DNA from: a virus
Taxonomy: Duplodnaviria > Heunggongvirae > Uroviricota > Caudoviricetes
Direction: 5' to 3' (one strand)
Virus record (IMG/VR): IMGVR_UViG_3300005264_000029
Location: 1-64,000 of that record
DNA: 64,000 nucleotides
The notes below the pieces were generated by a model, which saw only the letters and a program-made list of their open reading frames with translations, had not been told where the DNA came from and searched no databases. Positions 2,024 through 42,212 of this stretch are shown one piece after another (positions within the stretch are counted from its first letter, which is position 1; each line of letters begins with the position of its first letter). The translations under genes were made by a program, and so were the position numbers.

Positions 2024-2245
2024 ATGAGCGAGATAAAAAATATTAAAATTAATAATAAGATAGGATCTAGTGAGAAGTCATTAGTCTTTGATAGTAAGGA
2101 AGACTTACTAGAAGTATATGACATGTTAGAAAATAATAAAAATTTTGTTTTAACATATAATAATAAATCAACATTAATTATTGCAGATAATTATTACGCA
2201 CAAGTTAAAAATGGAGACATTGTATTGGAGGCAAACGAAAAATGA
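2024..2245 (+). CDS. hypothetical protein (73 aa)
   Basis: ORF track; ATGA overlap with next gene. Confidence 0.45.
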   Translation: MSEIKNIKINNKIGSSEKSLVFDSKEDLLEVYDMLENNKNFVLTYNNKSTLIIADNYYAQVKNGDIVLEANEK

Positions 2246-3621
2246 TAGGATGGATTATTTTAGCAGGATTTATTGGATTGATGGTTATTGTATTAATGTC
2301 ATTACATAGAATTGTTAGACCAAGCGAAGCACATTTAATTGTTAGAGCTTCAGGAGTAACAGGAGTATATTCTGCAACTAAAAAATTTAGAACAGATAAT
2401 GCCGGAACATCATATTTTCTAATTCCTGAATTTATTCCACACTTTGGAATGACTATTACACACCTAGATGTAACAATTAAGGAATTAAACTTTGAACAAA
2501 ACACTGTTGAACAAGACCAAGCAGAATATATTATTTCATCTTCTACTAAATATAGAACTGTTGATGCACAAAAAAATGCAGAGTCAATTCTTAGTGGTGA
2601 GGATTTAGCAGGACAATTAAAAGATATTGTACAAGCAGCTGTTAGACAAGTTACAGGTAAATATGATATTGTAAAAGCGAGATCGGAAAGAGAAGAAATT
2701 GCTACAAAAATTCAAACAGCTATTGGAAAAGATTTTGAAAGTTGGGGAGTGGAATTGGTTAATTTTGTACTTATCGATTTTAAAGATGTTGAAAATAAAA
2801 CAGTTATTCAAGATATTTCTAAGAGAAGAGAAATGGAAATTCATTCTACTACAAGAATTCAAAATGCTGCAAAGGATCAAGCTGCAAGAATGAAAGAAGC
2901 TGAAGCGGATGAAAAAGCTAAAGAGAGAGAAATTGAAAGGGACAAAGTTGTTGAAGAAAGAAAGCAAGAGATGGCCCAAGCAATTGCAGAAAAAGAAAAA
3001 GTAGCTCAAGAGAAAGCATTTGAAGTGATTAAAGTACAAACAATTAAACAAGCAGAGATTACAAAAGATGCTGCAATTGTAAAAGCCGAAGAGGATAAAA
3101 AAGTAGCTATTGTAAAAGCTCAACAACAAAAGGAAGCTGAAACTATTCTTAAAGAACAAAAGAGATTAGAGGGAGAAGGTGATAAACTTAAAGCTGAAGC
3201 TATTGCTAAAGGAGAAGCTGCACCTATTAGAGAAATGGGTAATGCTGAGGCAGAAATCATTTTAAAGAAATTAGTTGCTGAAGCTAAAGGTAAAGAAGAT
3301 TTACAAAAAGCACTTAATAAATTTACACCATCGGCAATCAATGCACTTACAGCAGAGTTACAAATTGAAGCTAATAAAGATGTAGGAATTGCAGGAGCTA
3401 AAGCGTTAGAACAATCAGAGATGAAAGTATTTTCAGGAAGTGATAATGGTGGAGGATTCGATACAGGAAAAGTATTAGCACAAATTGGAGTATCTAATTC
3501 AGGATTAGAAAATGCCATGCTTAATAAAACTGCAAGACCACAAGATTTAGGATTTACAGCACTTCAATTAAAGGATATGTATGATGAACAACAAAAAGTT
3601 GAACAATCATCCAATAAATAA
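2242..3621 (+). CDS. SPFH/band-7 (flotillin-like) membrane protein with long E/K/A-rich coiled coil
   Basis: N-terminal TM helix, SPFH-like core (...IVRASGVTGVYSA...FEQNTVEQDQAEYIISS...), then about 200 aa EA/KE-rich heptads typical of flotillins. Confidence 0.6.
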   Translation: MIGWIILAGFIGLMVIVLMSLHRIVRPSEAHLIVRASGVTGVYSATKKFRTDNAGTSYFLIPEFIPHFGMTITHLDVTIKELNFEQNTVEQDQAEYIISSSTKYRTVDAQKNAESILSGEDLAGQLKDIVQAAVRQVTGKYDIVKARSEREEIATKIQTAIGKDFESWGVELVNFVLIDFKDVENKTVIQDISKRREMEIHSTTRIQNAAKDQAARMKEAEADEKAKEREIERDKVVEERKQEMAQAIAEKEKVAQEKAFEVIKVQTIKQAEITKDAAIVKAEEDKKVAIVKAQQQKEAETILKEQKRLEGEGDKLKAEAIAKGEAAPIREMGNAEAEIILKKLVAEAKGKEDLQKALNKFTPSAINALTAELQIEANKDVGIAGAKALEQSEMKVFSGSDNGGGFDTGKVLAQIGVSNSGLENAMLNKTARPQDLGFTALQLKDMYDEQQKVEQSSNK

Positions 3622-4777: not shown

Positions 4778-6157
4778 ATGGATACTGAGCTATTAGAAAA
4801 AATAAAGAATACTCCTGGAACAAATGATAAGATCTTTTTATCAGTAACAGGATTTAAAGATGATGAACATTTGTACATGACTGAATGTTTTAGTAAGAAA
4901 ATATATGGAATAGCAAAAACAAGTATTGCAAAAGCTATTGGATATGATAAAGAACATTATGGAACATTTGAAGATCTAGGAGAATTCTTAATTACAAGAC
5001 CACTTGGAGGATATGATGTTTTATCTTCTGAAGATTCTGATTATAGCTTAACTGATTTAAATAAGTTCTTAGATGGTCTAGAAAATATATCAGGTGATGA
5101 TCAAATTAATGAATTACAGAATAGATTAATTAAAGTAGACCCTTTATATAGACCTTATTTTGTAAGAGTGTTACTTAAGGATCCTAGGATGGGAATATCA
5201 TTAAAGACATATAATTCTATTAGGATTAAATCTAAGTTGAAACCTATTAAAGTACATATTGTAAAATTAGCTGAGTTACTTGAAACATCTATTCCACCAA
5301 AACCTGATGATTTTGCTAAATTAAGTTTTCCTGTATATGAAGAAAATAAAGAGGATGGAATCAGAATTTTGGTTGAATACAAGAATAAAACCGTTAAGTT
5401 AACTTCAAGAGACGGTAATGATATTACAGTGCAATATCCTGAGATAGTTAAATATACTAAAGGATTATTTGATTATTATAATGATGTAGATTCTATTACT
5501 CTTGATGGTGAAATCGTGTCATCTAGTTTCAATGCTTTACAAAAAAGAATGAACCGACTTGAGGGAAATTTAAATATAGATTTTGATCTTAAATTAGTAA
5601 CATACGATATTACTGAGATCAATGGAAAGGATTTAATTGATTTTCCATTAGCTGATAGAAGGTTACAATTAGAGACAATCAATAAATTAATGCCCGAGTT
5701 TATATTAAGTGAAATGATTGTTTGTAATACTAAGGAAGAAATATATGAACTTTTTAAAAAAGCAATTGATAATAAGGAAGAAGGTATAATGCTTAAATCA
5801 CCAAAATCTAAATGGGCAAAGAAAAAAGATGATAGAAAGGATTGGTGGAAGGTAAAGGATATTCGTGAAAATACATTTGAAATTGTTGATTTAGATTATG
5901 GTAATGGTAAGAACAAAGATGTTTTCACAATTGTATATGTAAAGGATAAAACAGGTAATATTAATTCAAAGGTTAGTGGTGGGTTATCAGATGCTGATAA
6001 AAAAACATTAACCGAAAAAGGAAAAGAATATTGGATTGGTAAATGTGTTGATATTCAATATAATCAAATAACATCTAAGAACTCTCTTAGACATCCTAGA
6101 ATAATTAAATTCCGGTTTGATAAAACTGTTGCAGATACTATAGAAAATGATGATTAG
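4778..6157 (+). CDS. ATP-dependent DNA ligase
   Basis: motif I 'KEDGIRIL' (KxDGxR), III 'LDGEIV', IV 'EGIMLK', V 'WWKVK'. Confidence 0.85.
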   Translation: MDTELLEKIKNTPGTNDKIFLSVTGFKDDEHLYMTECFSKKIYGIAKTSIAKAIGYDKEHYGTFEDLGEFLITRPLGGYDVLSSEDSDYSLTDLNKFLDGLENISGDDQINELQNRLIKVDPLYRPYFVRVLLKDPRMGISLKTYNSIRIKSKLKPIKVHIVKLAELLETSIPPKPDDFAKLSFPVYEENKEDGIRILVEYKNKTVKLTSRDGNDITVQYPEIVKYTKGLFDYYNDVDSITLDGEIVSSSFNALQKRMNRLEGNLNIDFDLKLVTYDITEINGKDLIDFPLADRRLQLETINKLMPEFILSEMIVCNTKEEIYELFKKAIDNKEEGIMLKSPKSKWAKKKDDRKDWWKVKDIRENTFEIVDLDYGNGKNKDVFTIVYVKDKTGNINSKVSGGLSDADKKTLTEKGKEYWIGKCVDIQYNQITSKNSLRHPRIIKFRFDKTVADTIENDD

Positions 6158-6497: not shown

Positions 6498-6734
6498 ATG
6501 AAAATAGATAAAAAAATTATTGAAAAATCAAAAGAATTTAAAGTTTATTTAAAACAAAAAGAATATTTTATAAACAAATTTAATAATAAAGAATTAACTA
6601 ATTTAGATTTAATTAATTTAATAATTGAAGAAAGAATAATGAGATTCGAAACTTATAGAAAATATGTAGAACAAAGAAAAAAGAGAATAAATTTAAGTAA
6701 AAAATTAAATAAAATTAATGCGACAATTAATTAG
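6498..6734 (+). CDS. mini-gene array member (78 aa)
   Basis: ORF track; ends ...TIN* inside junction motif AATTAGATTAAGACAAATG. Confidence 0.45.
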   Translation: MKIDKKIIEKSKEFKVYLKQKEYFINKFNNKELTNLDLINLIIEERIMRFETYRKYVEQRKKRINLSKKLNKINATIN

Positions 6735-6744
6735 ATTAAGACAA

Positions 6745-6972
6745 ATGGAAAAAATAAATAAATATGAAATAACAAATAATACTAATAATTATGCTCTAGG
6801 TTATGAAGAATCAGAAAATGGAAAATGGTTAAAAGTTGAAGATGTTGAAAAAAGATTATTAGAAATAAAATCAAGAGTTTGTACTTGTGAATTTCCTGAA
6901 TCTATTTGGAATTGTCATGGGTGTAGGATAATTGAAGAATTATTTGGAAAAATCGAAGATACAATCAATTGA
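6745..6972 (+). CDS. array member, CxxC...CxxC zinc ribbon (75 aa)
   Basis: ATG inside junction motif; 'CTCEFPESIWNCHGC'. Confidence 0.45.
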   Translation: MEKINKYEITNNTNNYALGYEESENGKWLKVEDVEKRLLEIKSRVCTCEFPESIWNCHGCRIIEELFGKIEDTIN

Positions 6973-14029: not shown

Positions 14030-15400
14030 TTTCACAATTCAAACTAAAGGTTTATAAACACTTAATTATTAATATTTCTTAATGACAAAAACTTCTTTAA
14101 AAGTTAGATTGCGAATCAACAAATATAAATACAATATTCTAAAAACATTATGTTTACATTCTAAAAATCTTTATAATCAAGCGAATTATTTAATACAACA
14201 ATATTATAAATATACTGGAAAATATTTAACTTATTATGATATGTATTATATTATGCGAAATCGTGAAAATTTAGAACATGAAATTAATTTTAAAAAATTA
14301 AAATCTGGTGTATCGCAACAAGTACTAATGATACTAGATACAAATTGGAAAGCATATTTTAGAAGTGTTAACGATTGGAAAAAAAATAAATCAAAATATA
14401 ATGGGTTACCAAAACCGCCTGGATATATAAAAGAATATAATAATTTAGTGTATACATATGTGGTATTTCAAAATAAAAATAAATATATTCAGTTGGAAAA
14501 AAAATTAGGAATAAACATAGATATACCAAAACAATTAATAAATAAAAATATAAAACAAATAGAAATAATTTCACGACGAGAATGTTTTGAAGCTGTGTTT
14601 GTGTATGATGACGCAGTAAAGTATAAACAAATTGAAAAGAATGATAATGTATTAGGAATTGATTTAGGATTAAATAATATAGCTACTTGTGTCAGTAATA
14701 ATATAAAACCGTTTGTAATTAATGGTAAACCGTTAAAATCAATAAATCAATATTCTAATAAAAAAATAGCAAAAACTAAAAGTTGCTTGGAACATAGGAA
14801 TACCGTTAAGACAAGTAAGAAGATTATACAATTATATTATAAACGTAATAATAAAATTAGTGATTATTTGCATAAGGCTAGTAGACTAATAGTTAATAAG
14901 TGCGTGGAGAATAATATCTCCAAAGTAATCGTTGGTGATATAAGTAAATCACTTACCAAGATTAATCTTGGTAAAAGAAACAATCAAAATTTCATAAATA
15001 TCTCATTAGGCCAGTTTGTTGATAAAATAAAATACAAACTTGAGAAGCACAATATTAAAACAATTATAACTAATGAGAGTTATACATCAAAGTGTTCATT
15101 CATTGATAATGATACACTTCCACAGAAATTAGATACCAGTAAGAAATTTGTATTTAGTGGTAAAAGAATTAAACGTGGAATGTATAGAACTAAGAATAAT
15201 ATCTTAATAAATGCTGATGTGAATGGTGCTTATAATATAATTAGAAAAGTAATACCAAAGTTTGATATTAATTTATTAAAGGATGGTATAGAGGGAGACA
15301 CTATGTGTCGTTGGTTACACCCACATAAATTAACTGTATAAGTTTACAGTCTTTATGGTATTCAAATATTATTTAAAACTAAAGGTTTATAAATAATTAA
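14030..15400 (+). mobile_element. IS200/IS605-family TnpB-only (IS1341-like) element or domesticated derivative
   Basis: TnpB ORF flanked by 'AAACTAAAGGTTTATAAA' at 14036 and 15374; no tnpA. Confidence 0.5.
14082..15341 (+). CDS. tnpB: TnpB/OrfB-like RuvC-fold protein; RuvC-II and zinc finger appear degenerate
   Basis: 'GIDLGLNNIATCV' (RuvC-I), 'NFINISLGQFVDKIKYKLEKHNIKTIITNESYTSKCS', 'NADVNGAYNIIRK' (RuvC-III); expected 'xEDL' reads 'VIVGDI' and only one Cys remains in the CxxC...CxxC region. Confidence 0.75.
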   Translation: MTKTSLKVRLRINKYKYNILKTLCLHSKNLYNQANYLIQQYYKYTGKYLTYYDMYYIMRNRENLEHEINFKKLKSGVSQQVLMILDTNWKAYFRSVNDWKKNKSKYNGLPKPPGYIKEYNNLVYTYVVFQNKNKYIQLEKKLGINIDIPKQLINKNIKQIEIISRRECFEAVFVYDDAVKYKQIEKNDNVLGIDLGLNNIATCVSNNIKPFVINGKPLKSINQYSNKKIAKTKSCLEHRNTVKTSKKIIQLYYKRNNKISDYLHKASRLIVNKCVENNISKVIVGDISKSLTKINLGKRNNQNFINISLGQFVDKIKYKLEKHNIKTIITNESYTSKCSFIDNDTLPQKLDTSKKFVFSGKRIKRGMYRTKNNILINADVNGAYNIIRKVIPKFDINLLKDGIEGDTMCRWLHPHKLTV

Positions 15401-19473: not shown

Positions 19474-19716
19474 ATGGAATCTATAAAAAAATCAAAATCT
19501 GATATGTTAGAAATATCTGTACCAAAGGAATGGATACAATCATTTATTACTGCAGGACAAAACTATCAGAACAGAATTGAGTATTTAGAAAGAGAAGAAA
19601 AAATATCAGCATATAAATTGCAACGTATTAGGGACACTACAATGTACGACCTTGAAGCTGGAATGGAATATTTTAGAACTTTATTAGGAGTTACAAAACA
19701 AGAGGATACCGAATAG
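19474..19716 (+). CDS. hypothetical protein (80 aa)
   Basis: ORF track; abuts integrase start. Confidence 0.45.
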   Translation: MESIKKSKSDMLEISVPKEWIQSFITAGQNYQNRIEYLEREEKISAYKLQRIRDTTMYDLEAGMEYFRTLLGVTKQEDTE

Positions 19717-20661
19717 ATGTCTGCATTTGGAGAGATAGGAGAAGTATCTGTACTTATTGATTATGAGGAATATATGAAACGTCTTGGTCACAAACCATCA
19801 TATATATATCCTTCAATGGTGGCACTGCGATGTTTCGTAAAGGAAGGATATAATTGGGAGAAGTATGAAGACTATAATAGATTCTTAATAAAACACACCG
19901 TTAATAAAAGATCTACTGCTTACTTTGATGTATTAAAGAAATTTGTTAAATGGAAATTTAAGGAAGATAGAGAATTAAAAAATATAGTACTTGAATCTAT
20001 TCAGATGACAGGTAAAAAAGCTAGAGATCCTAAACCAAGAAACTCTATAATTACCGAAGCTGAACAAATGAGAATAATTCAAAACATAAAAACACCAAAA
20101 CATCAATTAATAGCATGGCTTCAAAAAGAATCAGGTGTTCGTGCCGGTGATGTACTTCGTACTTTAAAAGATAATTTTAAAATGGGAATGTATACTGATG
20201 ATGATGGCAGTGTGAGAAAAGTAATGGATATTGTATTTGTTAAGAAAGGTGACAGAGTTGCAAAGATTCCTATTTTTAATCCACATTTAATTCAATACTT
20301 AAAAGTACATTTAGAAAATTTAGATGGTGATGAAGATCTAGCGTTTATTAATAGAGATGTTGTTAGTAAAAAAAATAAAGATAATGAATATGCACTTATT
20401 CGTAGAAACTATAATTTATATCATGCTGATCTGAAACAAGCTTGTGATGATCTTGGATATGACTCAGGACAATTCTCAACTCACGATTGGAGAAGAAATT
20501 TTGCAAATAGAATTTGGGTTGATGTTCTTAAGAAAAATGATATCGTGGCACTCCAACGTGCGATGGGTCATTCACAAGTTGAAACAACGGCAATCTATTT
20601 AAGACAATCAGGATTACAAAGTAGAGATATATACAAACAGTCATATGATTTATCTAAATAA
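19717..20661 (+). CDS. int: tyrosine recombinase/integrase (XerC/D-like)
   Basis: 'GVRAGDVLRTL' (Arg-I), 'THDWRRNFA' (H-x-x-R), 'GHSQVETTAIYLR' (catalytic Tyr). Confidence 0.8.
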   Translation: MSAFGEIGEVSVLIDYEEYMKRLGHKPSYIYPSMVALRCFVKEGYNWEKYEDYNRFLIKHTVNKRSTAYFDVLKKFVKWKFKEDRELKNIVLESIQMTGKKARDPKPRNSIITEAEQMRIIQNIKTPKHQLIAWLQKESGVRAGDVLRTLKDNFKMGMYTDDDGSVRKVMDIVFVKKGDRVAKIPIFNPHLIQYLKVHLENLDGDEDLAFINRDVVSKKNKDNEYALIRRNYNLYHADLKQACDDLGYDSGQFSTHDWRRNFANRIWVDVLKKNDIVALQRAMGHSQVETTAIYLRQSGLQSRDIYKQSYDLSK

Positions 20662-20679
20662 TTATAATTATTTAGATAA
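20650..20679. repeat. 30-bp perfect palindrome TTATCTAAATAATTA|TAATTATTTAGATAA overlapping integrase stop codon
   Basis: checked base by base; 'GATTTATCTAAATAATTA' repeated at 20706-20723. Confidence 0.85.
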
Positions 20680-20746
20680 TCCAAACGAAGTGTTAGCGAA
20701 GTGCAGATTTATCTAAATAATTAATGTAATTAGTACATAATAAAAA

Positions 20747-20929
20747 ATGGGATATAAAAAAGGACATAAAGGATTTACAGGAACAAAGATAAAATCACCT
20801 ATGCAAAAATTGGTTGATGAATTTAATAGCTTGAAACAAAAAAATTCAAGAAAACATGAAATATATTTAGAGATTATGAAACTTGATGCTGAATTACAAA
20901 ATAATAAAAAAACAGTGGCAGCTAATTAA
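20747..20929 (+). CDS. hypothetical protein (60 aa)
   Basis: ORF track. Confidence 0.35.
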   Translation: MGYKKGHKGFTGTKIKSPMQKLVDEFNSLKQKNSRKHEIYLEIMKLDAELQNNKKTVAAN

Positions 20930-21098
20930 TATTTTAGGGTCTTATGATATAACTTTTTAAAAAAGTCTTCTAATATAGGCTCTAATTAATTCTATATATG
21001 TGAATATATTATCATACATTTCTAAACCATTAAATTCGAGTAGTACAAAGGTTTTAGTATAATCTAAATATATTACATTACACCAACAATAGATAACA

Positions 21099-21120
21099 AA
21101 AGGTTTATAAAGTATTAAGT
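21099..21120 (+). promoter_or_regulatory. class-A promoter 'AAAGGTTTATAAAGTATTAAGT'
   Basis: motif match. Confidence 0.45.
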
Positions 21121-21409
21121 GTTTATAATATATAACATGGTAAATACTGTTATAGAAGAAAAGAAAGATTTAATTAAATTTAATAGCGAGAATAAAAAAG
21201 ATCTAATGAGATTTGGATTAGATATGTTTATTGAGAAACAAAAAATTATGAAAGAGAACACTGCATATTTATGGGACCTAAAAAATAAATTTCAAGATAA
21301 GGTACAAAGAGATCAAACTCAAAAAATGCATTTAGCATATCAATTAAAATATGGTAACAAAGATATGATTGGAAGTGAACGTAGTGTTGGAAGACCTAAG
21401 AAGAAATAA
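21119..21409 (+). CDS. hypothetical protein with AT-hook-like C-terminus 'SVGRPKKK'
   Basis: ORF track; GRP core. Confidence 0.45.
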   Translation: MFIIYNMVNTVIEEKKDLIKFNSENKKDLMRFGLDMFIEKQKIMKENTAYLWDLKNKFQDKVQRDQTQKMHLAYQLKYGNKDMIGSERSVGRPKKK

Positions 21410-21415
21410 TTATAA

Positions 21416-21589
21416 ATGGCTCTAGTCAAATGTGATTTATGTAAAGTCAAGCAATCATTTGCTTTCTGTTATATTTTTAAATGTATTAAATGCGAACACC
21501 ACAAATTCGAATACGAAGGAGAAATTTATAGAAGTGGTCATGATGGTGGTAAGCATTATTCAAAAGAATGTGAAAAAGATGAAATTTGA
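21416..21589 (+). CDS. small Cys/His-rich zinc-finger protein (58 aa)
   Basis: 'CDLCKVKQSFAFCYIFKCIKCEHH'; frame differs from track ORF 21432. Confidence 0.3.
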   Translation: MALVKCDLCKVKQSFAFCYIFKCIKCEHHKFEYEGEIYRSGHDGGKHYSKECEKDEI

Positions 21590-24590: not shown

Positions 24591-25112
24591 ATGGAATATA
24601 AAAAGATCGAGAAACACAGCGTAGTAAAGATCTGTGAAATATGTGGTAAAGACTTTATAGATGAAACTAAAAGTCACTGTCAGAGAATCTGTGGATCGAG
24701 AACTGAAAGTTCGAGTTCCGATGGAAGCGAAGTGAAAGGAGGGAATAAAGAATGTCAATTAGAAAGAGATAGAAGACGACAGAGAGCATATTATAAATCT
24801 AATGATTCATATGCTGCAAAAGCTAAAAGAGCTACTAAAATCTATTATAAGAATAATACTAAAAAATGTTTAGCATACCAGCAGCTATATAGAATAGAGA
24901 ATCCAGAGGTTATTAAATATCATAATACGAACTGGAATAAAGATAATAGGTCAGAGTATAGTAGAAAATATAATAGATCCTGGAGATTAAAGAATTTAAA
25001 ATATGAACAGTTAAGTGATAAAATAAAATGGAGAATAAAAACTACTATTCCTATAGAAATTATACGTGAGAAATATTCAGAATTATCAGATACATTTATA
25101 AAATCCGCATAA
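24591..25112 (+). CDS. FCS-type zinc-finger protein paralog (173 aa)
   Basis: 'CEICGKDF...HCQRICGS'; C-term 'IPIEIIREKYSELS'. Confidence 0.5.
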   Translation: MEYKKIEKHSVVKICEICGKDFIDETKSHCQRICGSRTESSSSDGSEVKGGNKECQLERDRRRQRAYYKSNDSYAAKAKRATKIYYKNNTKKCLAYQQLYRIENPEVIKYHNTNWNKDNRSEYSRKYNRSWRLKNLKYEQLSDKIKWRIKTTIPIEIIREKYSELSDTFIKSA

Positions 25113-25134
25113 TACAGTAGCATTATGCGGATTT
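25101..25134 (+). terminator. 13-bp perfect stem-loop followed by T-run
   Basis: AAATCCGCATAAT-acagtagc-ATTATGCGGATTT then TTTT; unusually GC-rich. Confidence 0.5.
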
Positions 25135-25148
25135 TATAATATATAAAG

Positions 25149-26072: not shown

Positions 26073-26552
26073 ATGAATGAATTTCTAAAGACATTAATAG
26101 AAGGTCTAGTATTTACATTATTAATTATGATCATTGTGTTCTCAGGGATTTATGGAATGTTATTCGTGTTAGATACTAAATATAACACGCACGTCCTTAC
26201 AGAACCTCTACCAGTTTTTAAACATAATAATATACAGAATTCTCATAGTGAATATAGATCAGGCCTATTACATCATATGGCTAGGGAATTAAACTATACA
26301 GTGAATGTAGTCGCTGGAGCAAGTATGGAGCCTACTATTTTCGACGGTGATAATTTTATATGCGATCCTAAATTAACTCCTCAGATAGGAGATATAGTTC
26401 TAGTTAATAGAATTAATAATACCGAGTATGTACATAGAATACGCGCTATTTATTCAGATCATGTAGTTACTCAAGGTGATGATAATAACTATATAGATCC
26501 AGATATTAATATGTCTGATATAGAATGTGTGGTCGTAGGTGTATACTACTGA
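26073..26552 (+). CDS. type I signal peptidase (S26/Sec11-like; SF clan)
   Basis: N-terminal TM anchor; 'VVAGASMEPTIFDGD' (Ser box), 'GDIVLVNRINNTEYVHRIRA' (His where S24 has Lys), 'GDDNNYIDPD' (GDNN box). Confidence 0.6.
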   Translation: MNEFLKTLIEGLVFTLLIMIIVFSGIYGMLFVLDTKYNTHVLTEPLPVFKHNNIQNSHSEYRSGLLHHMARELNYTVNVVAGASMEPTIFDGDNFICDPKLTPQIGDIVLVNRINNTEYVHRIRAIYSDHVVTQGDDNNYIDPDINMSDIECVVVGVYY

Positions 26553-28645: not shown

Positions 28646-29434
28646 ATGGAAGAACTAAAAATAACTAATAAACATGAAAGAGATAGTAGGATAGTTTTCG
28701 ATGAGGAACCTCATATATACTATATAGATAAAGTAGCTTATGATATTTCTGTTACAGGATTTATTCATAAGTTCTTTTCAGAATTTAACCCAAAAGAAAT
28801 CATAGATAAGTATTATGATAAATGGCAACTAGATCAGTCGAGTAAATATAAAGGTATGAGTAAAGAAGATATAGAAAAGTCCTGGACAGATAATGGTAAG
28901 CTGCAGAGCGAACTAGGAACTAAGATGCATCTAGACATCGAGAACTTTTATAATGGAAAAGAAATCGATAATGATTCGATTGAATTCGAATTCTTTTTAC
29001 AATACTTTAGAAAGCATATATACTTAGAAGCATACAGAACCGAGTGGGAAGTTTTCGATGAGAAGCTTAAACTTGCAGGATCTATAGATATGTTATATAA
29101 AAATACTAAGACCAATAAATATGTTATATGTGATTGGAAAAGATCTAAAGAAATAAAGATGCGTAATAACTTTCAGAAGGGATCGAGTCCAGTTAGTCAT
29201 TTAGACGATTGCAATTTCAATCATTACTCATTACAATTAAATGTATATAAACGATTACTAAAAATCAATTATGATATAGATGTAGAAGAAATGTTTCTAG
29301 TAAGATGCCATCCAAACGCTTCAGACTATGAAAAAATTATAGTAAGTAATATGGATAAAGAAGTAGATCTACTTTTCACTTTTAGAGAAATGCAACTGAA
29401 TAAAGAAATTGATTTCAAATTTGATTGTATTTGA
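28646..29434 (+). CDS. RecB-family PD-(D/E)xK nuclease (YqaJ/lambda-exo/Cas4-like, no Cys cluster)
   Basis: 'GSIDMLY' (motif II), 'YVICDWKRSK' (hhDxK), 'YSLQLNVYKRLL' (QxxxY). Confidence 0.55.
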   Translation: MEELKITNKHERDSRIVFDEEPHIYYIDKVAYDISVTGFIHKFFSEFNPKEIIDKYYDKWQLDQSSKYKGMSKEDIEKSWTDNGKLQSELGTKMHLDIENFYNGKEIDNDSIEFEFFLQYFRKHIYLEAYRTEWEVFDEKLKLAGSIDMLYKNTKTNKYVICDWKRSKEIKMRNNFQKGSSPVSHLDDCNFNHYSLQLNVYKRLLKINYDIDVEEMFLVRCHPNASDYEKIIVSNMDKEVDLLFTFREMQLNKEIDFKFDCI

Positions 29435-29473
29435 AATTGAAATCAAAAACATTTTAATTCAAAATAATTTTTA

Positions 29474-29487
29474 CTAGGCATGCCTAG
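29474..29487. promoter_or_regulatory. perfect 14-bp palindrome CTAGGCATGCCTAG; first TGCCTAGA cluster (29474-29545)
   Basis: motif about 20 times in window vs about 6 expected, in four clusters. Confidence 0.5.
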
Positions 29488-29802
29488 ACCAGCACTAGAA
29501 AATCTAGGCATGATCTTGTTCTCTAATTTTTCCTAGGCATGATCTTGATCTCGATTTTTTCAAATTCTTATAAAATCAATTTCGTATTTAATATCAATCG
29601 ATTTCGAATTCAATTAAAATCAATTTCGAATTCAATCGAAATAATAAAACACCCATACGAAATCGATATAATACACTATTGAATAAAACACGAAATAAAC
29701 ATATTTTTCTAAGTAGTAAAAAAGTTTTTATTTTTCACTTTTTAGTTATAAAAATATACTCAAAAAATAAACTTATACTTTACTCTTTTATAGTGGTTAT
29801 AA

Positions 29803-29881: not shown

Positions 29882-30070
29882 ATGAATAATATAAAAATAA
29901 TAAAAAGTTTTGATTCATATAAAACTTATATTTTAGGAGTTAAAACAAAAATGAATATAAAGCAATTAAGGAGCTTAAAAAAGTTTTTTAATATGAGTAT
30001 TATAAAAAGTAATAATCTTTATAATATGGACTTACTAAGGACTATAAAAAGGAGTTATAAAAATGAATAA
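29882..30070 (+). CDS. hypothetical K/N-rich protein (62 aa)
   Basis: ORF track. Confidence 0.35.
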   Translation: MNNIKIIKSFDSYKTYILGVKTKMNIKQLRSLKKFFNMSIIKSNNLYNMDLLRTIKRSYKNE

Positions 30071-30359
30071 AGAAATAAAAAAATATGAAGTAAGAGAAAT
30101 AAACACAAGTGAAGTAATGTATAAACATTGCTTTAATAATGAAATTATTTATTTAGGTAATGATTTATATTTATTAGATATTGACAGTTTAGGCGATAGA
30201 GATTTTATATTATATGAATTTGAAGAAGATTTTATATTAGAAAATTCTACAAAAATAAATGATTCAGATTTAACAACAGAAGATATAAAAAACGAAATTA
30301 AATATTTAAAAACTAGTTTAGAAAATGATTTAGCAATTATAAAAAGTTTAGAAAAATGA
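30063..30359 (+). CDS. hypothetical protein (98 aa)
   Basis: ORF track. Confidence 0.4.
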   Translation: MNKEIKKYEVREINTSEVMYKHCFNNEIIYLGNDLYLLDIDSLGDRDFILYEFEEDFILENSTKINDSDLTTEDIKNEIKYLKTSLENDLAIIKSLEK

Positions 30360-30535
30360 ATAATTCAAAAATATATAAAGGTTATAAAATTATTTTCGAA
30401 CCAAAATTTAAAGGTTTTAAAGTAAATGTAAGTAAAAATAATTCTTTAGAAAGTGGACAAGAGTTTTTAAGTAGTAATATTGATACTGCTTTTAAACTTT
30501 CTAAAGAGTGGATAAATTTGGAGTTAAAAAAATGA
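30356..30535 (+). CDS. hypothetical protein (59 aa) with 'PKFKGFK' box
   Basis: ATGA overlaps; box shared with 30840 gene. Confidence 0.3.
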   Translation: MNNSKIYKGYKIIFEPKFKGFKVNVSKNNSLESGQEFLSSNIDTAFKLSKEWINLELKK

Positions 30536-30843
30536 ATAAAAAATATTATAGTATTGAAGAGTTTAAAGAATTAAAGGAATACTCAAAAGAGTATAATAAT
30601 ATTAAAAATGATTTAAAGGATTTTAAAAAATCTTATTGTTTTTATATTATAAAAATTAATAAAGAAAATATTGCTTTATTTGTATTTGATAAATATGAAT
30701 ATAATATAAATTTATACTATCAAAACGAAATTATAATTTATAATAATTTTGATAGTTTTGATTATTCAAGTATTGAAAAAAATTTAATAGATGAATATTA
30801 TTTAAAAGATTATATAACTAAAAAACTTGAGGTTTTAAAATGA
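30532..30843 (+). CDS. hypothetical protein (103 aa)
   Basis: track ORF 30508; start at ATGA junction. Confidence 0.4.
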   Translation: MNKKYYSIEEFKELKEYSKEYNNIKNDLKDFKKSYCFYIIKINKENIALFVFDKYEYNINLYYQNEIIIYNNFDSFDYSSIEKNLIDEYYLKDYITKKLEVLK

Positions 30844-31067
30844 ATAACCTATTCAAAAAAGATTTATTAAAACCTAAATTTAAAGGTTTTAAATTGTCTA
30901 ATAAAACAAAAGTTAAATTAAAATTTATTATTAAACATATTATATTTAATAAATTTTTTAATCATTTATTTAGTAGAAAAGAAAATTTAAATTTATATAA
31001 TGTTTTAACAAGTAAATTAAACCACAGAAAAATAAATATAAAAAAACATTATATTATTATAAACTAA
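30840..31067 (+). CDS. hypothetical basic protein (75 aa)
   Basis: ORF track. Confidence 0.35.
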   Translation: MNNLFKKDLLKPKFKGFKLSNKTKVKLKFIIKHIIFNKFFNHLFSRKENLNLYNVLTSKLNHRKINIKKHYIIIN

Positions 31068-31071
31068 AAAA

Positions 31072-31167
31072 ATGAATATACCAAATATATTAAAAAATAA
31101 AAGAAACGGCGACTTTATAGAAATTGAGTATAAAGAAAATTTAAATAATATGGAGTTAAGAAAATGA
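31072..31167 (+). CDS. hypothetical peptide (31 aa)
   Basis: ATGA coupling into RadC gene. Confidence 0.2.
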   Translation: MNIPNILKNKRNGDFIEIEYKENLNNMELRK

Positions 31168-31544
31168 AAAAAATAAAAATTTCAAATAGTGACGCAGTTT
31201 TTAAGAATATTAAAAAACATTTTGATTTATACCAAGAAAATTTTATATTAATTGGTATAAATTCAAATAGTGAAATATTATTAAATGAAGTAATTTTTAA
31301 AGGGGGTGTAAATAATTGTAACATTGATTTAAAGATTATATTTAAAAAATTATTATTAAATAATTGTACTAGTTTTTTTATTGCACACAATCACCCAAGT
31401 AAAAATTTAAATCCAAGTCAATCAGATTTAACAATAAATAATAAAATAAAAAAAGCTAGTGAAATATTAGATTTAAAATTATTAGATAGTTTAATATTTA
31501 GTGATAATAATTTTTATTCGTGTTTTGATAATGAGGTTTTATAA
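31164..31544 (+). CDS. radC: RadC-like JAB/MPN domain protein
   Basis: 'FIAHNHPSKNLNPSQSDL' matches JAB H-x-H-x(7)-S-x(2)-D. Confidence 0.65.
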   Translation: MKKIKISNSDAVFKNIKKHFDLYQENFILIGINSNSEILLNEVIFKGGVNNCNIDLKIIFKKLLLNNCTSFFIAHNHPSKNLNPSQSDLTINNKIKKASEILDLKLLDSLIFSDNNFYSCFDNEVL

Positions 31545-31968
31545 AGTGGTTAAATCAAAAATTATATTTATCAAAACTAAAGAAAATTGTTTTAAACAAA
31601 TTGGGAGTTTAAAATCTTTACATTTGGTTAAATGTAAAGTCATAAATGAATATATTACTTTAAATAATATTGTAAATAGACATAATCAAATTAAAGAAAA
31701 TACTACTTTAATAATTTTACATAATAAAAAAGAAGTGGAATTTAAATATAAAAAATCTAAGGAATTTAAATATATAAATTATGATAAATTACAAAACTTT
31801 TATTTTAATTTTTTACACGGATTTTTAAACAACTTTGAAAATATTTATATTATATATTTGAAGAGAAATAAACAATATTTAAAAGTTACACCTTTTAGTA
31901 ATATAAATAAAAATAGAGATAATTTTAAAGACATAATCACACCACTTTTAAAATTATATAATGATTAA
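31531..31968 (+). CDS. hypothetical protein (145 aa)
   Basis: track ORF 31501; ATG 31531 follows 'GAGGTTTTA' SD. Confidence 0.4.
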   Translation: MRFYKVVKSKIIFIKTKENCFKQIGSLKSLHLVKCKVINEYITLNNIVNRHNQIKENTTLIILHNKKEVEFKYKKSKEFKYINYDKLQNFYFNFLHGFLNNFENIYIIYLKRNKQYLKVTPFSNINKNRDNFKDIITPLLKLYND

Positions 31969-32047
31969 AAATAAAGAACGATATTAAAAATTTAATTTAA
32001 ATTAAAATATCTATTTGAATTAAAACGAAATTAAAGAACACAAACCG

Positions 32048-32110
32048 TGCCTAGATCTCGATGCCTAGATTTTAAAGAACAAACTGTGCCTAGATTTTTT
32101 TCTAGGCATT
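32048..32110. promoter_or_regulatory. second TGCCTAGA motif cluster (4 copies)
   Basis: GTGCCTAGATCTCGATGCCTAGATT...TGTGCCTAGATTTTTTTCTAGGCA. Confidence 0.45.
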
Positions 32111-32314
32111 TAGATAATCATTATTTTTTAACTATCTTAAAACATACCTTAAACTATAATATACTTATACTTAGAATATATAAAAGCATATAAGAAGACT
32201 TTTTTAAAAAGTAATGTTATGACATAACTTAAAACCTTTATACTTAAAATTTAAAATAAATATTATAGTGTCACTTGTCATTATATAAAAGTGTGTGTAA
32301 AATACACCACCTTA

Positions 32315-32396
32315 ACGAAAGGTTTATAAATACTTAAGTACTTATATAATTATCAAGTGAAGAGATAAAAACTTTTTACTTAAACCTTAAAAAATG
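32315..32396 (+). promoter_or_regulatory. promoter-leader copy 2; 32270-32347 near-identical to 36050-36127
   Basis: 'CGAAAGGTTTATAAATACTTAAGTACTTATATA' plus leader. Confidence 0.5.
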
Positions 32397-33368
32397 AAAA
32401 AAGAAATAAATAAAAAAACTTATGATTTAAAAAAATCACAAGATAATAAAAATAGTGAAGAAGTTATAAAAGCTAATATAAAAAATGTTAGTAAATTTAA
32501 TTTTAAAAAAAGTAATGAAATAATTAAAACTAATAATAATAAATTAACAACTTCAAGAGTTGCAATAAATAAAAAAGTTGAAGAGTTTAAATTTAATTTG
32601 GAACAAAAGACAAAAGAAGAAAATAAAAAACTAAGAGAAGAAACAAAAGAAGAAGAAGAAAACCAAGAGATTATAAACAAAACTAGAAGAGAGTTAAATT
32701 ATAGATTTAATTCTTTTTATAATTTTAAACCAAGTGTTTTAAACAATATGGATAAAATTAAAAACTTTGAATTTTATGAAAAAGGCGAAATTTTAAAAAC
32801 TTTTAAAGACGATAAAAAAGAGGGTTTAGTTTATTATCAAACTAATAATAATAATGTTAATTGTTATAGTTTAGGTTTTAGCTTTTGGAGTATTTACGAC
32901 ACTTTAAATTTATTAAATAATAGGTCAAGTGTTTTTTATCAAAATAAAATATACTTTTCAAATAGAGTTAGATTTAATTATAAAAATGAAAAAGATTCTT
33001 TTAATTTTCATACCGATTATTTAATAAAAAACTTTTCAAGTATTACAGAATTAAAAGAATATTACGAAAAGAACAAAAATAAAATCGAAAACAATATAAA
33101 TAAAAAACTTGAAATTGTAGAAAAAGAATTAAACCTTTATAATAAATTGTTTAAATCAAATTCAGATTTTAAAAAACATTTCCAAGAAGAAAAACTATAT
33201 TATATTATAAATAATTTTGGTTCAAGTATAAGAGATAACACTTTAAAAGATTGGGATAAAAAAAATAAATCAAATTACAATAATGAATTAATCGAAATAC
33301 TAAAAGATTTAAATTTAAAATTAGACTTTTCAAATAGATTTGATATTAAAGTTAAAGAGGTTTTATAA
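32394..33368 (+). CDS. large K/N/E-rich hypothetical protein (324 aa)
   Basis: ORF track; ends ...KEVL*. Confidence 0.5.
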   Translation: MKKEINKKTYDLKKSQDNKNSEEVIKANIKNVSKFNFKKSNEIIKTNNNKLTTSRVAINKKVEEFKFNLEQKTKEENKKLREETKEEEENQEIINKTRRELNYRFNSFYNFKPSVLNNMDKIKNFEFYEKGEILKTFKDDKKEGLVYYQTNNNNVNCYSLGFSFWSIYDTLNLLNNRSSVFYQNKIYFSNRVRFNYKNEKDSFNFHTDYLIKNFSSITELKEYYEKNKNKIENNINKKLEIVEKELNLYNKLFKSNSDFKKHFQEEKLYYIINNFGSSIRDNTLKDWDKKNKSNYNNELIEILKDLNLKLDFSNRFDIKVKEVL

Positions 33369-33369
33369 A

Positions 33370-33594
33370 ATGGTTTCTATGCAATATATAAAAGAATTAG
33401 AATTACAAGACGGAATAAGTTTAAACGCTTATTTTGAATATATTTATTTATCTTTAATTAATGGACAACGAACACAAGTAAAAGAATTAATTAATAAATT
33501 AAATAAACCACAGAAATTAAATTTTCACGATTATTTAAATATGGTTTATCAAAACACAGAATATAAAAACGAATTAATAAGAGGTTTAATTTAA
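33370..33594 (+). CDS. hypothetical protein (74 aa)
   Basis: ATG after 'GAGGTTTTATAAA'. Confidence 0.4.
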   Translation: MVSMQYIKELELQDGISLNAYFEYIYLSLINGQRTQVKELINKLNKPQKLNFHDYLNMVYQNTEYKNELIRGLI

Positions 33595-33595
33595 A

Positions 33596-33997
33596 ATGGA
33601 AAATATAGAAAAATTAAAAAACAAAGTTAAAGAATTAAACAATATTATTTATAATATGGAACAAGAAAAATTTTTAACTAAGGTTGAATGTGTAAAATTT
33701 AAAAATAATAATAATGGTGATGTTATTAATTTATTAAGAATATTAGATAAAGAATTAAAAAATAAATTAGAAATTAGAAATTTATATAGTTGTAAATTAA
33801 AAACTAAAAACTTTCTAGTGTCTTTTAATTATTGTAATAGAAAAAATAAAATATTATTTACTTTTGAAAAAGGTTATTTTTCTCATTGTGAATATATAGA
33901 CATAACAACAATAATTAAAAGATTTAAAACTTTAAGATTTGAATTATATTATAATATAGAATATAAAGAAATTAGCTTAAATATAAATATTAAATAA
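33596..33997 (+). CDS. hypothetical protein (133 aa)
   Basis: ORF track. Confidence 0.45.
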   Translation: MENIEKLKNKVKELNNIIYNMEQEKFLTKVECVKFKNNNNGDVINLLRILDKELKNKLEIRNLYSCKLKTKNFLVSFNYCNRKNKILFTFEKGYFSHCEYIDITTIIKRFKTLRFELYYNIEYKEISLNINIK

Positions 33998-33999
33998 AA

Positions 34000-34161
34000 A
34001 TGGAACGAAAAGAATATTTATTAAAAATAAAACAAACTAAAGAAGATATAAAAAACGCAGAAACTAAATATAAAGATTATTCAAATAAAAACGATATTAT
34101 ACATAATCTTAAAATAAGTTTAGATATACAAGAATTTAATTTAAAAGAGGGCAGATTTTAA
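34000..34161 (+). CDS. hypothetical protein (53 aa)
   Basis: ATG-to-stop frame. Confidence 0.3.
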   Translation: MERKEYLLKIKQTKEDIKNAETKYKDYSNKNDIIHNLKISLDIQEFNLKEGRF

Positions 34162-34163
34162 AA

Positions 34164-34409
34164 ATGGAATATTTGAAAACTAAAGATAATTTAAATTTAA
34201 TAGGAAAGAGAGCAAGAATAAAAAACAATGTTTTAGGATATTGTAGTTTTTTATATAATTGTGAAGGAATTATAAAAAATGTTAATGATAAAATTTATCT
34301 CGAATTTAATAAAATTGCATATAGAGATGAAACAGACAAAATAAATAAATCTCCTTTTGGTATGAATGGGGTTTATATTTGTTATGGAGTTATAGAGGTT
34401 TTAAATTAA
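34164..34409 (+). CDS. hypothetical protein (81 aa)
   Basis: ORF track; ends ...IEVLN*. Confidence 0.4.
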   Translation: MEYLKTKDNLNLIGKRARIKNNVLGYCSFLYNCEGIIKNVNDKIYLEFNKIAYRDETDKINKSPFGMNGVYICYGVIEVLN

Positions 34410-34410
34410 A

Positions 34411-34650
34411 ATGAGTCAATATAAAAAAGATTTAATAAAAGAAATGAAAAGTTTTAATATTGAAATTAATAAAAAAGGTATTATGAGCAAAGCACATATA
34501 TTATTAATATTAAATACTATTGATTCAATAAACGATTTAAATACTTTATATATTATAGGTCATAGCTTTTTTGAACAATTAGTATTTTTAAAAATTGATT
34601 CAAGAGATTATTTAAAAGTTTTACAAAGTAGATACAATATTAAAAAATGA
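34411..34650 (+). CDS. hypothetical protein (79 aa)
   Basis: ORF track. Confidence 0.4.
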   Translation: MSQYKKDLIKEMKSFNIEINKKGIMSKAHILLILNTIDSINDLNTLYIIGHSFFEQLVFLKIDSRDYLKVLQSRYNIKK

Positions 34651-34859
34651 AACAGAAAACAGAAATTAAAATAAAAACTAAAAGAGAAAATAAAGACTTT
34701 TCAAATAAGGATATAAAAGAAATAAGAAAAGAAATAAGAAAGAGCGTTAATAATTCACAGACTACCGAAGAAGATTTAAATTTAAAGCTTAATGAAATTG
34801 ATAATGTTTTAAAGAACAAGAAGAAAACACATAATAAATATTATATGAGAGAATTATAA
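34647..34859 (+). CDS. hypothetical basic protein (70 aa)
   Basis: ORF track. Confidence 0.4.
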   Translation: MKQKTEIKIKTKRENKDFSNKDIKEIRKEIRKSVNNSQTTEEDLNLKLNEIDNVLKNKKKTHNKYYMREL

Positions 34860-34912
34860 AACCTATTGGTTTTATATATCGACTAAATAAAATGAAAGGA
34901 GAATTATAAAAA

Positions 34913-35149
34913 ATGAATGAGGAACAAAGCGAAGAATTAATAAAAGTTTTAATTGATGTAAAAGAAGAATTAAAAAATATTGTAAAGGTCTTAAAACCTA
35001 AGCAAGAAATAAAAACCGAAATAGTTAAAAAACATTTATTATCTATGCAAGAGCAAAGACTTATAAGATTTAAAAATTATGTTACTTCAAATAATTTTTA
35101 TAATACATTAACAGAAAAACAAAAAGAAGAGTTATTAAATTTAAAATGA
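34913..35149 (+). CDS. hypothetical protein (78 aa)
   Basis: ORF track. Confidence 0.4.
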   Translation: MNEEQSEELIKVLIDVKEELKNIVKVLKPKQEIKTEIVKKHLLSMQEQRLIRFKNYVTSNNFYNTLTEKQKEELLNLK

Positions 35150-35418
35150 TGAAACAATATAAATATAAAATACAATGGTTAATTGATGTTAATAAGGACT
35201 ATAAATTTAATAATGAAATTAAACAATTATTAAATATTATAGGAGTAAGAAGTTTAGATAAAATTGTTTTAAGAGATAATGATTATAAAATTATTGATAC
35301 ATATAATAGTTTTATTTGTTTTCCTTATGGCTTAGCAGAAAAAGAAACTTTAAAATATATTAAAAAACAAGTTAAGAAAAATAATAAAATTGTTTATGTT
35401 GATTTTGTGAGGACTTAA
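35146..35418 (+). CDS. hypothetical protein (90 aa)
   Basis: ORF track. Confidence 0.4.
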   Translation: MMKQYKYKIQWLIDVNKDYKFNNEIKQLLNIIGVRSLDKIVLRDNDYKIIDTYNSFICFPYGLAEKETLKYIKKQVKKNNKIVYVDFVRT

Positions 35419-35422
35419 AAAA

Positions 35423-35593
35423 ATGAGTTGTAAATATAAATTAAAATCTAATAAACATAATTTAAATTGTTTATCTTTATTTGAAGTTGTAGAATATATA
35501 AAACTTTATGATAAGGATAATACTATAAATAAAATTGAAATAACAAAAGACACAATAAACAAAGAACAAATAAAACAATACTATAATATTTAA
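35423..35593 (+). CDS. hypothetical protein (56 aa)
   Basis: ATG-to-stop frame. Confidence 0.3.
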   Translation: MSCKYKLKSNKHNLNCLSLFEVVEYIKLYDKDNTINKIEITKDTINKEQIKQYYNI

Positions 35594-35767
35594 ACTTATT
35601 ATTACTTTTATATATTGTTTATTAAAGTCTTATTAGCTTTGATAAACTCATTTTTTAAAAGTTTAAGTATTAGTACAATTTTAAAATAAAGGTCTTAAAT
35701 AAACCTTTATATAATTCTATTAAATAAAACAAATTAGATATATAATAAAAAATATTTTTATACAGAT

Positions 35768-35935
35768 CATGCCTAGATTGAAAGTATGCCTAGATTTTTA
35801 AACTTACTTAGATGCCTAGAGTGAAATAATATTCACTACTTTAATATATTATATTGTTCTTAAAATAATTAAAAAATTAATGAAATTATATTATAATTTA
35901 AATTTAAATCAAGTGACATAAGTCTAGGCATCTAC
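35768..35935. promoter_or_regulatory. third TGCCTAGA motif cluster (4 copies)
   Basis: CATGCCTAGATTG...TATGCCTAGATTT...GATGCCTAGAGTG...GTCTAGGCATC. Confidence 0.45.
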
Positions 35936-36094
35936 TTTAAAGTTGTGTATAGAGTGTTTTAATACTTGTTAGTATCTTATATTAAATATTAGAAGAGATA
36001 ATAAAAAAGTAATGTTATGACACCCTAAAAATTAAAATACTCTATACACTCATATATTTAATTATATAAAGTGTGTGTAAAATACACCACCTTA

Positions 36095-41677: not shown

Positions 41678-41874
41678 GCTATAATTGGAATGGTATGATA
41701 AAAATAAACTATGAAGATTGTTTAACTTTGTTTGATAATGAAATTGAAACATTTTTACTTTATGATGATAATACGGAAGCCGTAACAACTTCAAGACAAG
41801 AAATTTATAAACACTATAATTTAAGTGGAGAATTTGGAATCGAAAATGTAGAAGACATTGAAGTAGAACAATGA
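41674..41874 (+). CDS. hypothetical acidic protein (66 aa)
   Basis: ORF track. Confidence 0.4.
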   Translation: MSYNWNGMIKINYEDCLTLFDNEIETFLLYDDNTEAVTTSRQEIYKHYNLSGEFGIENVEDIEVEQ

Positions 41875-42212
41875 TTGAAGATTTAGATATAAAAACAATT
41901 ATACCATATTATGAAGTAAAGGGGTGTTTTGGATATGAAACAAAATCTAGTATGAGATTACTTAAACCTATTATTAATTTCTCTTCTAGGTTTGAAGAAG
42001 TTACAACTCATATTAGTAAAGTACTCAAAGCTTATGATATTAAACATAACATAATGTTTAGAGGTAATGCTTATCATTTAAGAATGTCACATATAACAAA
42101 TTGTCATAGATTTACTAAGTTGCTTGTAGATGGTGGAATGAGAGTGAGATTAAAAGAAGTTGAAGAAATGTATAACTATTGTAATAAAAATGATAAACGA
42201 AATAAAACTTAA
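41871..42212 (+). CDS. hypothetical protein (113 aa)
   Basis: ORF track. Confidence 0.45.
   Translation: MIEDLDIKTIIPYYEVKGCFGYETKSSMRLLKPIINFSSRFEEVTTHISKVLKAYDIKHNIMFRGNAYHLRMSHITNCHRFTKLLVDGGMRVRLKEVEEMYNYCNKNDKRNKT

Follow-up and report, generated by a model that had tools for sequence, protein, structure and literature searches.

A perfect palindrome over the stop codon of a Xer/Cre-type recombinase gene, possibly a target of that recombinase

The palindrome and its repeats

The DNA analysed here (the window) comprises positions 1 to 64,000 of the IMG/VR virus record IMGVR_UViG_3300005264_000029, part of a 126-kb metagenome contig, at 27% G+C. It carries a gene for a tyrosine recombinase of the Xer/Cre type, the 3' end of which lies in a perfect 30-bp palindrome that is followed by a further copy of one palindrome half. 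We describe this locus and weigh whether the palindrome could be the DNA target of the adjacent recombinase. The features on which the argument turns are the following.

19717..20661, plus strand: open reading frame (ORF) of the Xer/Cre-type tyrosine recombinase gene, 314 amino acids (aa), the last gene of a module conserved in relatives
20647..20664, plus strand: copy 1 of an 18-nt repeat, GATTTATCTAAATAATTA, comprising the last four recombinase codons (D L S K), the stop codon, and the next 3 nt
20650..20679, unstranded: site I, the perfect 30-bp palindrome, TTATCTAAATAATTA followed by TAATTATTTAGATAA, by direct reading
20680..20705, plus strand: spacer, richer in G+C, with an 11-nt tandem duplication, CGAAGTGTTAG followed by CGAAGTGCAGA
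20706..20723, plus strand: copy 2 of the 18-nt repeat, identical to copy 1 at 18/18 positions
20709..20741, unstranded: site II, a decayed second dyad with an intact left arm, three extra central bases, and a degenerate right arm, TAATTAGTACATAA

The palindrome ends at 20650 and 20679 because the T at 20649 opposes a T at 20680, and it can be parsed either as 13-4-13 with the centre TATA or as 12-6-12 with the centre TTATAA. The recombinase stop codon TAA (20659-20661) lies within the left arm, and the centre of the palindrome falls 3 nt past this codon. An earlier note on this DNA had placed the stop codon inside a perfect palindrome, which was borne out by the direct reading. It had also reported that the half-site recurs 56 bp downstream; the recurrence was confirmed at 20706-20723, the figure of 56 bp having been counted from the start of the palindrome, and the two 18-mers start 59 bp apart. 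Two copies of the word ACGAAGTG had been described between the half-sites, but only one was found (20685-20692); the second reads GCGAAGTG (20696-20703), and the sequence actually repeated is the 7-mer CGAAGTG.

The last 15 nt of copy 2 are complementary, without a mismatch, to the palindrome's right arm (20665-20679), the two segments being 29 nt apart. When the 59-bp unit starting at 20647 was aligned with the unit starting at 20706, the second was seen to be a decayed copy of the first (TAATTA-GTACATAAT versus TAATTATTTAGATAAT). From this alignment, the repeats read as an old duplication of which the 18-mer alone has been kept exact. The presence of an exact 18-mer amid a decayed duplicated unit suggests selection on the motif itself.

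No other perfect palindrome without a spacer in the 64-kb window is as long as the 30-bp one, the runners-up having arms of 11 nt. The second-longest one, of 22 bp, is located at 14953-14974 inside the coding sequence of a TnpB gene. An arm of 15 nt was reached in none of 200 second-order Markov simulations, the maximum of which was 14 nt, observed once, and the 18-nt direct repeat together with its inverted copy was matched in none of 300 shuffles of the intergenic region. A z value of -5.7 was obtained for the hairpin as single-stranded DNA. The motif is present three times in the 64 kb, always beside the recombinase gene; a search of the window with the 15-mer half-site gave no further close copy, and matches with at most two mismatches occurred at chance level. 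The palindrome and the extra half copy are real and non-random. This non-randomness, like the anatomy of the sequence, is directly established, and the palindrome is probably functional.

The recombinase and its candidate target

The recombinase passed the cut-off of the Pfam family PF00589 (31.7 bits against 27.1), and its catalytic residues R142, H256, R259, H285, and Y294 (R, H-x-x-R, H, Y) were invariant across 11 homologues, which upholds the previous naming of the gene as a tyrosine recombinase and directly establishes the enzyme class. The best NCBIfam match was archaeal XerA (NF040815; E-value 7e-14), but the score of 52.1 bits was far below the equivalog cut-off of 220, so that the recombinase is not a member of the XerA equivalog family proper. 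Residues 8-304 of the family profile aligned end to end with residues 12-275 of Pyrococcus XerA (PDB 4a8e). Furthermore, XerA, XerH, IntI, and Cre were the top full-length fold matches of an AlphaFold2 model with a predicted local distance difference test (pLDDT) score of 76. The end-to-end alignment and the fold matches indicate a simple two-domain enzyme with a core-binding and a catalytic domain, leaving no room for an arm-binding domain of the lambda type. Identity with the integron integrase IntI was rejected, as TIGR02249 scored 26 bits where 265 are required, and a search of 20300-21300 matched no RNA or structure family.

In a protein database of 5.8 billion sequences, the recombinase family comprised 11 proteins by single-sequence search and 28 clusters by profile. 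The names and accessions of these clusters offered no useful pointer to a host. No relatives of the recombinase were found in IMG/VR with the single sequence or the profile, nor in a set of 185,579 bacterial and archaeal genomes, one per species. A conserved 230-aa protein encoded upstream also had no relatives in IMG/VR. Immediately before the recombinase gene lies one further ORF of interest.

19474..19716, plus strand: 80-aa ORF, possible accessory protein, abutting the recombinase start codon

This ORF also lies directly upstream of the recombinase gene in the related lineages L005, L006, and L010. It matched neither Pfam nor NCBIfam, and a word-indexed homologue search returned only the ORF itself.

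The natural targets of simple tyrosine recombinases are inverted repeats of ~28-34 bp, which often adjoin the recombinase gene. The segment 20650-20679 has the build of such a core site, namely inverted arms of ~11-14 bp and a 4-8-bp centre, and the layout as a whole combines, as in the system of TnpI and its IRS, a symmetric core with direct motif copies beside the gene, one accessory copy being intact here. We tentatively favour the reading that the neighbouring Xer-like recombinase acts on the palindrome and the extra half-site copy as its DNA target, which on these features we regard as plausible rather than likely.

In the scheme that we infer for binding, cleavage, and biological role, each of two recombinase monomers would bind one of the two equal arms of site I, and the DNA would be cut at positions separated by 6 bp around the TTATAA / TATA centre, just after the stop codon of the enzyme's own gene. 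Because the crossover would lie past the stop codon, the recombinase gene would stay intact. The direct copy 59 bp downstream, presumably once part of a second dyad, would bind more monomers as an accessory site and would give the symmetric core a direction, like DR1 and DR2 for TnpI at the IRS of Tn4430. The role would be recombination between copies of the element, that is, multimer resolution or circle closing as in Cre/lox, Xer/dif, and TnpI/IRS, rather than chromosomal integration of the lambda type. Of the integrase recognition or attachment layout proposed in the earlier note, the recognition part is consistent with the simple Xer/Cre enzyme, the target-like size, and the TnpI/IRS-like design, and the attachment part found no evidence.

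An attP of the lambda type, serving integration into a host chromosome, is quite unlikely at this locus. In integrating elements, attP often adjoins the 3' end of the integrase gene, and the 80-aa ORF abutting the recombinase start has an excisionase-like placement. However, the enzyme has no arm-binding domain, its 314 aa aligning end to end with XerA, and neither relatives in the 185,579 species genomes nor junctions were found. No tRNA-like or host-like identity block was found either, and the recombinase gene stands within a long co-directional gene block with no lysogeny switch beside it. As for the suggestion that the palindrome be looked for at the junctions of related proviruses, no provirus was found among the same species genomes and the arm-plus-spacer searches gave chance matches only: 52 in JGI metagenomes and 76 in IMG/VR, all of them single-strand chance matches and none extending into element sequence.

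It is highly improbable that the palindrome is a telomere-resolution site, at which the recombinase would cut the palindrome and seal hairpin ends. Such sites are typified by perfect dyad symmetry across the centre, and they adjoin the gene of their enzyme; but no protelomerase was present among the 50 best-listed fold matches of this recombinase, which has the canonical Xer/Cre fold and 314 aa, and the sequence is continuous through the site in two independent assemblies. The protelomerase and integron readings were rejected on enzyme family and size.

Relatives and transcriptional alternatives

Among the relatives, the genes upstream of the recombinase gene are syntenic and the downstream genes differ in every lineage. 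The palindrome site sits at the border where a conserved upstream module gives way to downstream genes that vary. If the palindrome is a target of the recombinase, this would help to explain why gene content changes exactly here among relatives. An unlikely, further-reaching version of this idea is a self-contained integron-like or lox-like platform, in which a small new family of Xer-like recombinases on AT-rich, probably archaeal elements would carry its site on its own stop codon and half-sites would mark the gene swap point.

Lineage L005, from the same sample, is the closest relative that shares the layout. Its recombinase is 59% identical to that of the window, a perfect 13-12-13 dyad spans the stop codon, and the 3' end of its recombinase gene, which differs from that in the window, is repeated four times. 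Since L005 repeats its own differing 3' end with a homologous spacer, the repeats co-vary with each gene's own 3' end. The spacer word AAACGAAGTG is shared with the corresponding spacer of L005, and those of L006 and L010 contain ..AAGTGG.. instead. The tandem units of L005 (64 bp and 30 bp) are near-identical and look recent, which is consistent with a palindrome of no dedicated function that has spurred local slippage and duplication, the recent repeats being bound to decay; long perfect palindromes are known slippage hot spots. We nevertheless consider this explanation improbable: the duplicated unit in the window has decayed save for the exact 18-mer, the layout and the spacer motif are common to lineages with recombinases only 59% identical, and a half-coding 30-bp perfect palindrome needs selection or a very recent origin.

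Several observations weigh against the palindrome being a recombinase target. Searches of the 64-kb window of the 126-kb contig and of the JGI metagenomes, IMG/VR, and the species genomes, collections that did not include the source sample, turned up neither a partner site nor a junction, and neither a deletion variant nor a provirus. A fully symmetric centre is unusual among natural sites. The palindrome agreed with the Thermococcales dif consensus at 18/28 positions, a chance level that was reached by 4.4% of the 28-mers of the window. A significant repeat of the recombinase 3' end was observed in only two of the ten lineages tested. Perfect dyads with arms of at least 9 nt span the recombinase stop codon in six of twelve lineages, compared with ~0.1-3% of positions, ~1% on the whole, in these loci, but their geometries are 15-0-15, 13-12-13, 13-8-13, 10-4-10, 9-4-9, and 9-4-9 (spacers of 0, 4, 8, and 12 bp; arms of 9-15 bp), and the other six lineages have no dyad with arms of at least 9 bp at this position; the geometry of the site is not conserved. 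Geometries that vary so widely are more readily reconciled with an RNA stem-loop than with a conserved protein-DNA complex. In the window, four of the 21 dyads with arms of at least 9 nt sit on stop codons, and one of these is larger than the palindrome studied here. In L012 and L013, a cassette of ~100-240 bp, consisting of a dyad, a T-tract, a promoter, and a small hairpin, follows the recombinase gene and also two unrelated genes. Furthermore, the palindrome region aligned better than shuffles did with the promoter/start region after the recombinase gene in L006, L010, and L003 (p = 0.002, 0.004, and 0.01, respectively). The features that enter into these and the following comparisons are listed below.

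25096-25139: GC-cored perfect 18-8-18 dyad, TTATAAAATCCGCATAAT..ATTATGCGGATTTTATAA, over the stop codon of ORF 24591..25112 and followed by TTTTAT
2371-2474, 4975-5212, and 6500-6592 of L012: repeated cassette, also present in L013
20936..20990, unstranded: element X, AGGGTnTTA...CTTTTTAAAAAAGTCTTCT..GGCTCTAA, a terminator-like T-tract element conserved across lineages

The 18-8-18 dyad looks like a terminator hairpin. L012 and L013 are one element from two samples, and they differ by a 790-bp indel ~840 bp downstream of the recombinase gene, away from the dyads.

It is possible, though somewhat doubtful, that the palindrome forms a stem-loop where the recombinase message ends, which would stabilise or process the 3' end or terminate transcription, with the downstream copy as an alternative partner for the right arm. 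This explanation would accommodate the stop-codon dyads of half of the lineages with their freely variable loop sizes, the occurrence of dyad, T-tract, and promoter after three different genes in L012 and L013, and the stop-codon dyads of the window, including the 18-8-18 dyad with its TTTTAT. In the predicted minimum-free-energy fold, moreover, the right arm is paired with the third copy (-20.4 kcal/mol, z -2.25). On the other hand, the stem is almost pure A-U, with one G-C pair per arm, otherwise A+T, and then TCCAAACG. A T-run is absent after the palindrome, the first T5 tract lying 270 nt on, in element X (~20950), and no terminator-like site (an intrinsic terminator with a G+C-rich stem and a T-run) was called in 19500-21500. 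Pairing also leaves unexplained the conserved loop-equivalent part in all four L005 copies and the 3 nt by which the direct repeat runs beyond the complementary part, and the alignment of the relatives gave no covariation-supported structure (-0.23 kcal/mol). A search against Rfam returned nothing in the window at the gathering score and nothing in 20300-21300 at E-values up to 1.

A role in starting, rather than ending, transcription was considered with the following features.

20747..20929, plus strand: 60-aa basic ORF between the repeats and element X
21094..21135, plus strand: first canonical promoter motif after the recombinase gene, AAAAGGTTTATAAAGTATTAAGTGTTTATAATATA, like a B recognition element (BRE) plus TATA box
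1972, 4735, 11079, 14052, 15387, 21105, 26679, 29807, 32324, and 36104, plus strand, and 43726, minus strand: intergenic copies of the canonical promoter motif, (CG)AAAGGTTTATAAA-yACTTAAgt-TTATATA, ~35 nt

The canonical motif, AAAGGTTTATAAA-N12-TTATATA, is strongly conserved and sits 31-45 nt ahead of start codons; we take it to resemble the archaeal BRE and TATA box. A motif of the canonical type is also present after the recombinase gene in relatives. If the locus were a promoter or operator, the 18-mer (TTTATCTAAATAATTA) would be a diverged TATA-like box or a regulator site for the 60-aa ORF and the downstream genes; the regulator could be the recombinase, and the palindrome would then be a dimeric operator, an alternative raised in the earlier note. 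We regard this as doubtful. It agrees with the alignment to the promoter/start region of L006, L010, and L003, and also with a dyad, GATAA-N19-TTATC, that L006 and L010 retain immediately ahead of the following gene and that corresponds to the right arm paired with the third copy. The 39 nt from copy 2 to the ATG of the 60-aa ORF fall in the canonical range, and the canonical promoters are themselves near-palindromes, around ACTTAAGT. Against it, the profile built from the 11 canonical copies misses 20640-20730 (best nhmmer E-value of ~200 in 20600-20770), and the TATA-like box is interrupted (TTTATCTAAA versus TTTATAAA). The motif recurs nowhere else in the 64 kb and therefore forms no promoter class. 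In L156, a 10-4-10 dyad spans the recombinase stop codon and the next gene is convergent, 31 bp off, so that no promoter is needed there, which also counts against a promoter or operator. A scan for sigma-70 promoters gave promoter-like sites at or below shuffle expectation, and none of the genes located after the recombinase gene in relatives was homologous to the 60-aa ORF.

If the palindrome is transcriptional punctuation of one kind or the other, it would be an ordinary feature, and the lesson would be that large stop-codon dyads are common in these genomes and should not be taken for att sites.

Element X, in the form ..CTTTTTAAAAAAGTCTTCT..GGCT.., is also found in the window at ~32193 (minus strand), in L005 (5358-5418), L014 (6608-6657), and L010 (2759), and in L012. 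It directly follows the recombinase gene in L014 and the repeats in L005, and its orientation relative to the recombinase gene varies across lineages. It is probably a two-way T-tract terminator. As a host-derived att core it was rejected: its matches were one chance match in a Lewinella contig of 49% G+C and five in IMG/VR, and it is a generic T-tract element that recurs in the window.

The element and comparison with known systems

The element has almost no similarity to known phages, and no tRNA genes were found in the window. The TatC and signal peptidase encoded in the window scored best against archaeal models, and the tRNA genes of a relative carry the same TATA motif ~30 nt upstream. 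On the basis of the BRE/TATA-like motif, the archaeal-type TatC and signal peptidase, and the TATA motif at the tRNA genes of the relative, we consider with moderate confidence that the element is an archaeal virus or plasmid. In L154 (11163-11334), two adjacent tRNA-Ser genes (anticodons TGA and GCT) are convergent with the recombinase gene and lie ~225 bp away from its stop codon, and a TTTATAAATA box lies ~30 nt upstream of the promoter-proximal tRNA-Ser(GCT) gene; these genes are probably carried by the element.

TatC, a flotillin / Band 7 protein, and a signal-peptidase-like protein (732-1436, 2242-3621, and 26073-26552) make up an unusual membrane and secretion set for a mobile element. 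The window also encodes an ATP-dependent ligase. Two giant ORFs on the minus strand (44980-50232 and 50289-57821; 1750 and 2510 aa) contain repeated Laminin_G_3 / concanavalin-like lectin domains and have smaller kin in L154 and L156; their products are probably adhesins or receptor-binding proteins. The G+C content drops to 16-18.5% at 30000-36000, compared with ~23-35% elsewhere in the window. A gene-free stretch of 630 bp at 29400-29700 holds repeat clusters, with TTTTTnCTAGGCATG three times and AATCAATTTCGAATTCAAT several times, in both orientations, and may be an origin of replication or a control region of another kind. Both repeat types were also observed in L014 at 6700-6910, directly downstream of its recombinase gene.

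If the palindrome is a target of the recombinase, the locus would offer a compact enzyme-and-site pair from unexplored, probably archaeal mobile elements, and a natural example of a fully symmetric core given direction by an accessory copy; the pair could possibly be tool-like.

Among known systems, the core site of TnpI has the geometry 14-4-14 with perfectly symmetric arms and 6-bp staggered cuts, and is flanked by direct copies of an accessory motif, which alone impose direction even on fully symmetric cores (PMC2847244). The locus described here resembles this system in having a small tyrosine recombinase that would act without helper proteins, a site beside the gene, and a symmetric core with direct copies. 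It differs in that one accessory copy rather than two is intact, 29 bp from the core, that the arms are 13-15 bp long, and that the site overlaps the 3' end of the gene instead of lying upstream. No Tn3-type context is seen here, a scan of the neighbouring ORFs having given no Tn3-type transposase; the gene of TnpB, 5 kb away, was the sole transposon-related one found. This gene, of the RNA-guided nuclease family (14082-15341), has its own canonical promoter motif.

The archaeal dif site is near-palindromic (11-6-11), with nearly identical arms and inner ..ATAA / TTAT.. bases, and XerA and dif form a single-recombinase system in which FtsK is not needed (PMC2958812, PMC4640148, PMC3646895). 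XerA is the nearest protein relative of the present recombinase by both sequence and fold. However, the two proteins are ~20% identical, with the 52 versus 220 bits given above; cellular dif lies away from xerA and has an asymmetric spacer, and the site described here belongs to a mobile element, not a chromosome. Elsewhere in the window, 41882-41909 on the minus strand (ATATGGTATAA-TTGTTT-TTATATCTAAA) agrees with the Thermococcales dif consensus at 24/28 positions and is one of three equal best segments; the segment falls within ORF 41871..42212 and has a right arm identical to the one common in Thermococcales, and the agreement is within chance for A+T-rich DNA.

Cre/loxP of phage P1 and Dre/rox of phage D6 consist of simple tyrosine recombinases and inverted-repeat sites of 32-34 bp near the recombinase gene, and circularise or resolve the phage or plasmid genome. 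In contrast to the locus described here, the lox and rox sites lack a third repeat and their spacers are asymmetric, and no sequence relationship of the enzymes is detectable beyond the fold. Stop-codon stem-loops and terminator-promoter cassettes share with the palindrome its position, exactly where the last gene of a transcription unit ends, and the window and its relatives have such dyads after other genes; the palindrome differs from these in being nearly all A+T and loopless, with no T-run after it and with an exact extra half-copy downstream. If the palindrome is a recombinase target, the closest analogue of the locus would be TnpI/IRS in design and XerA/dif in protein.

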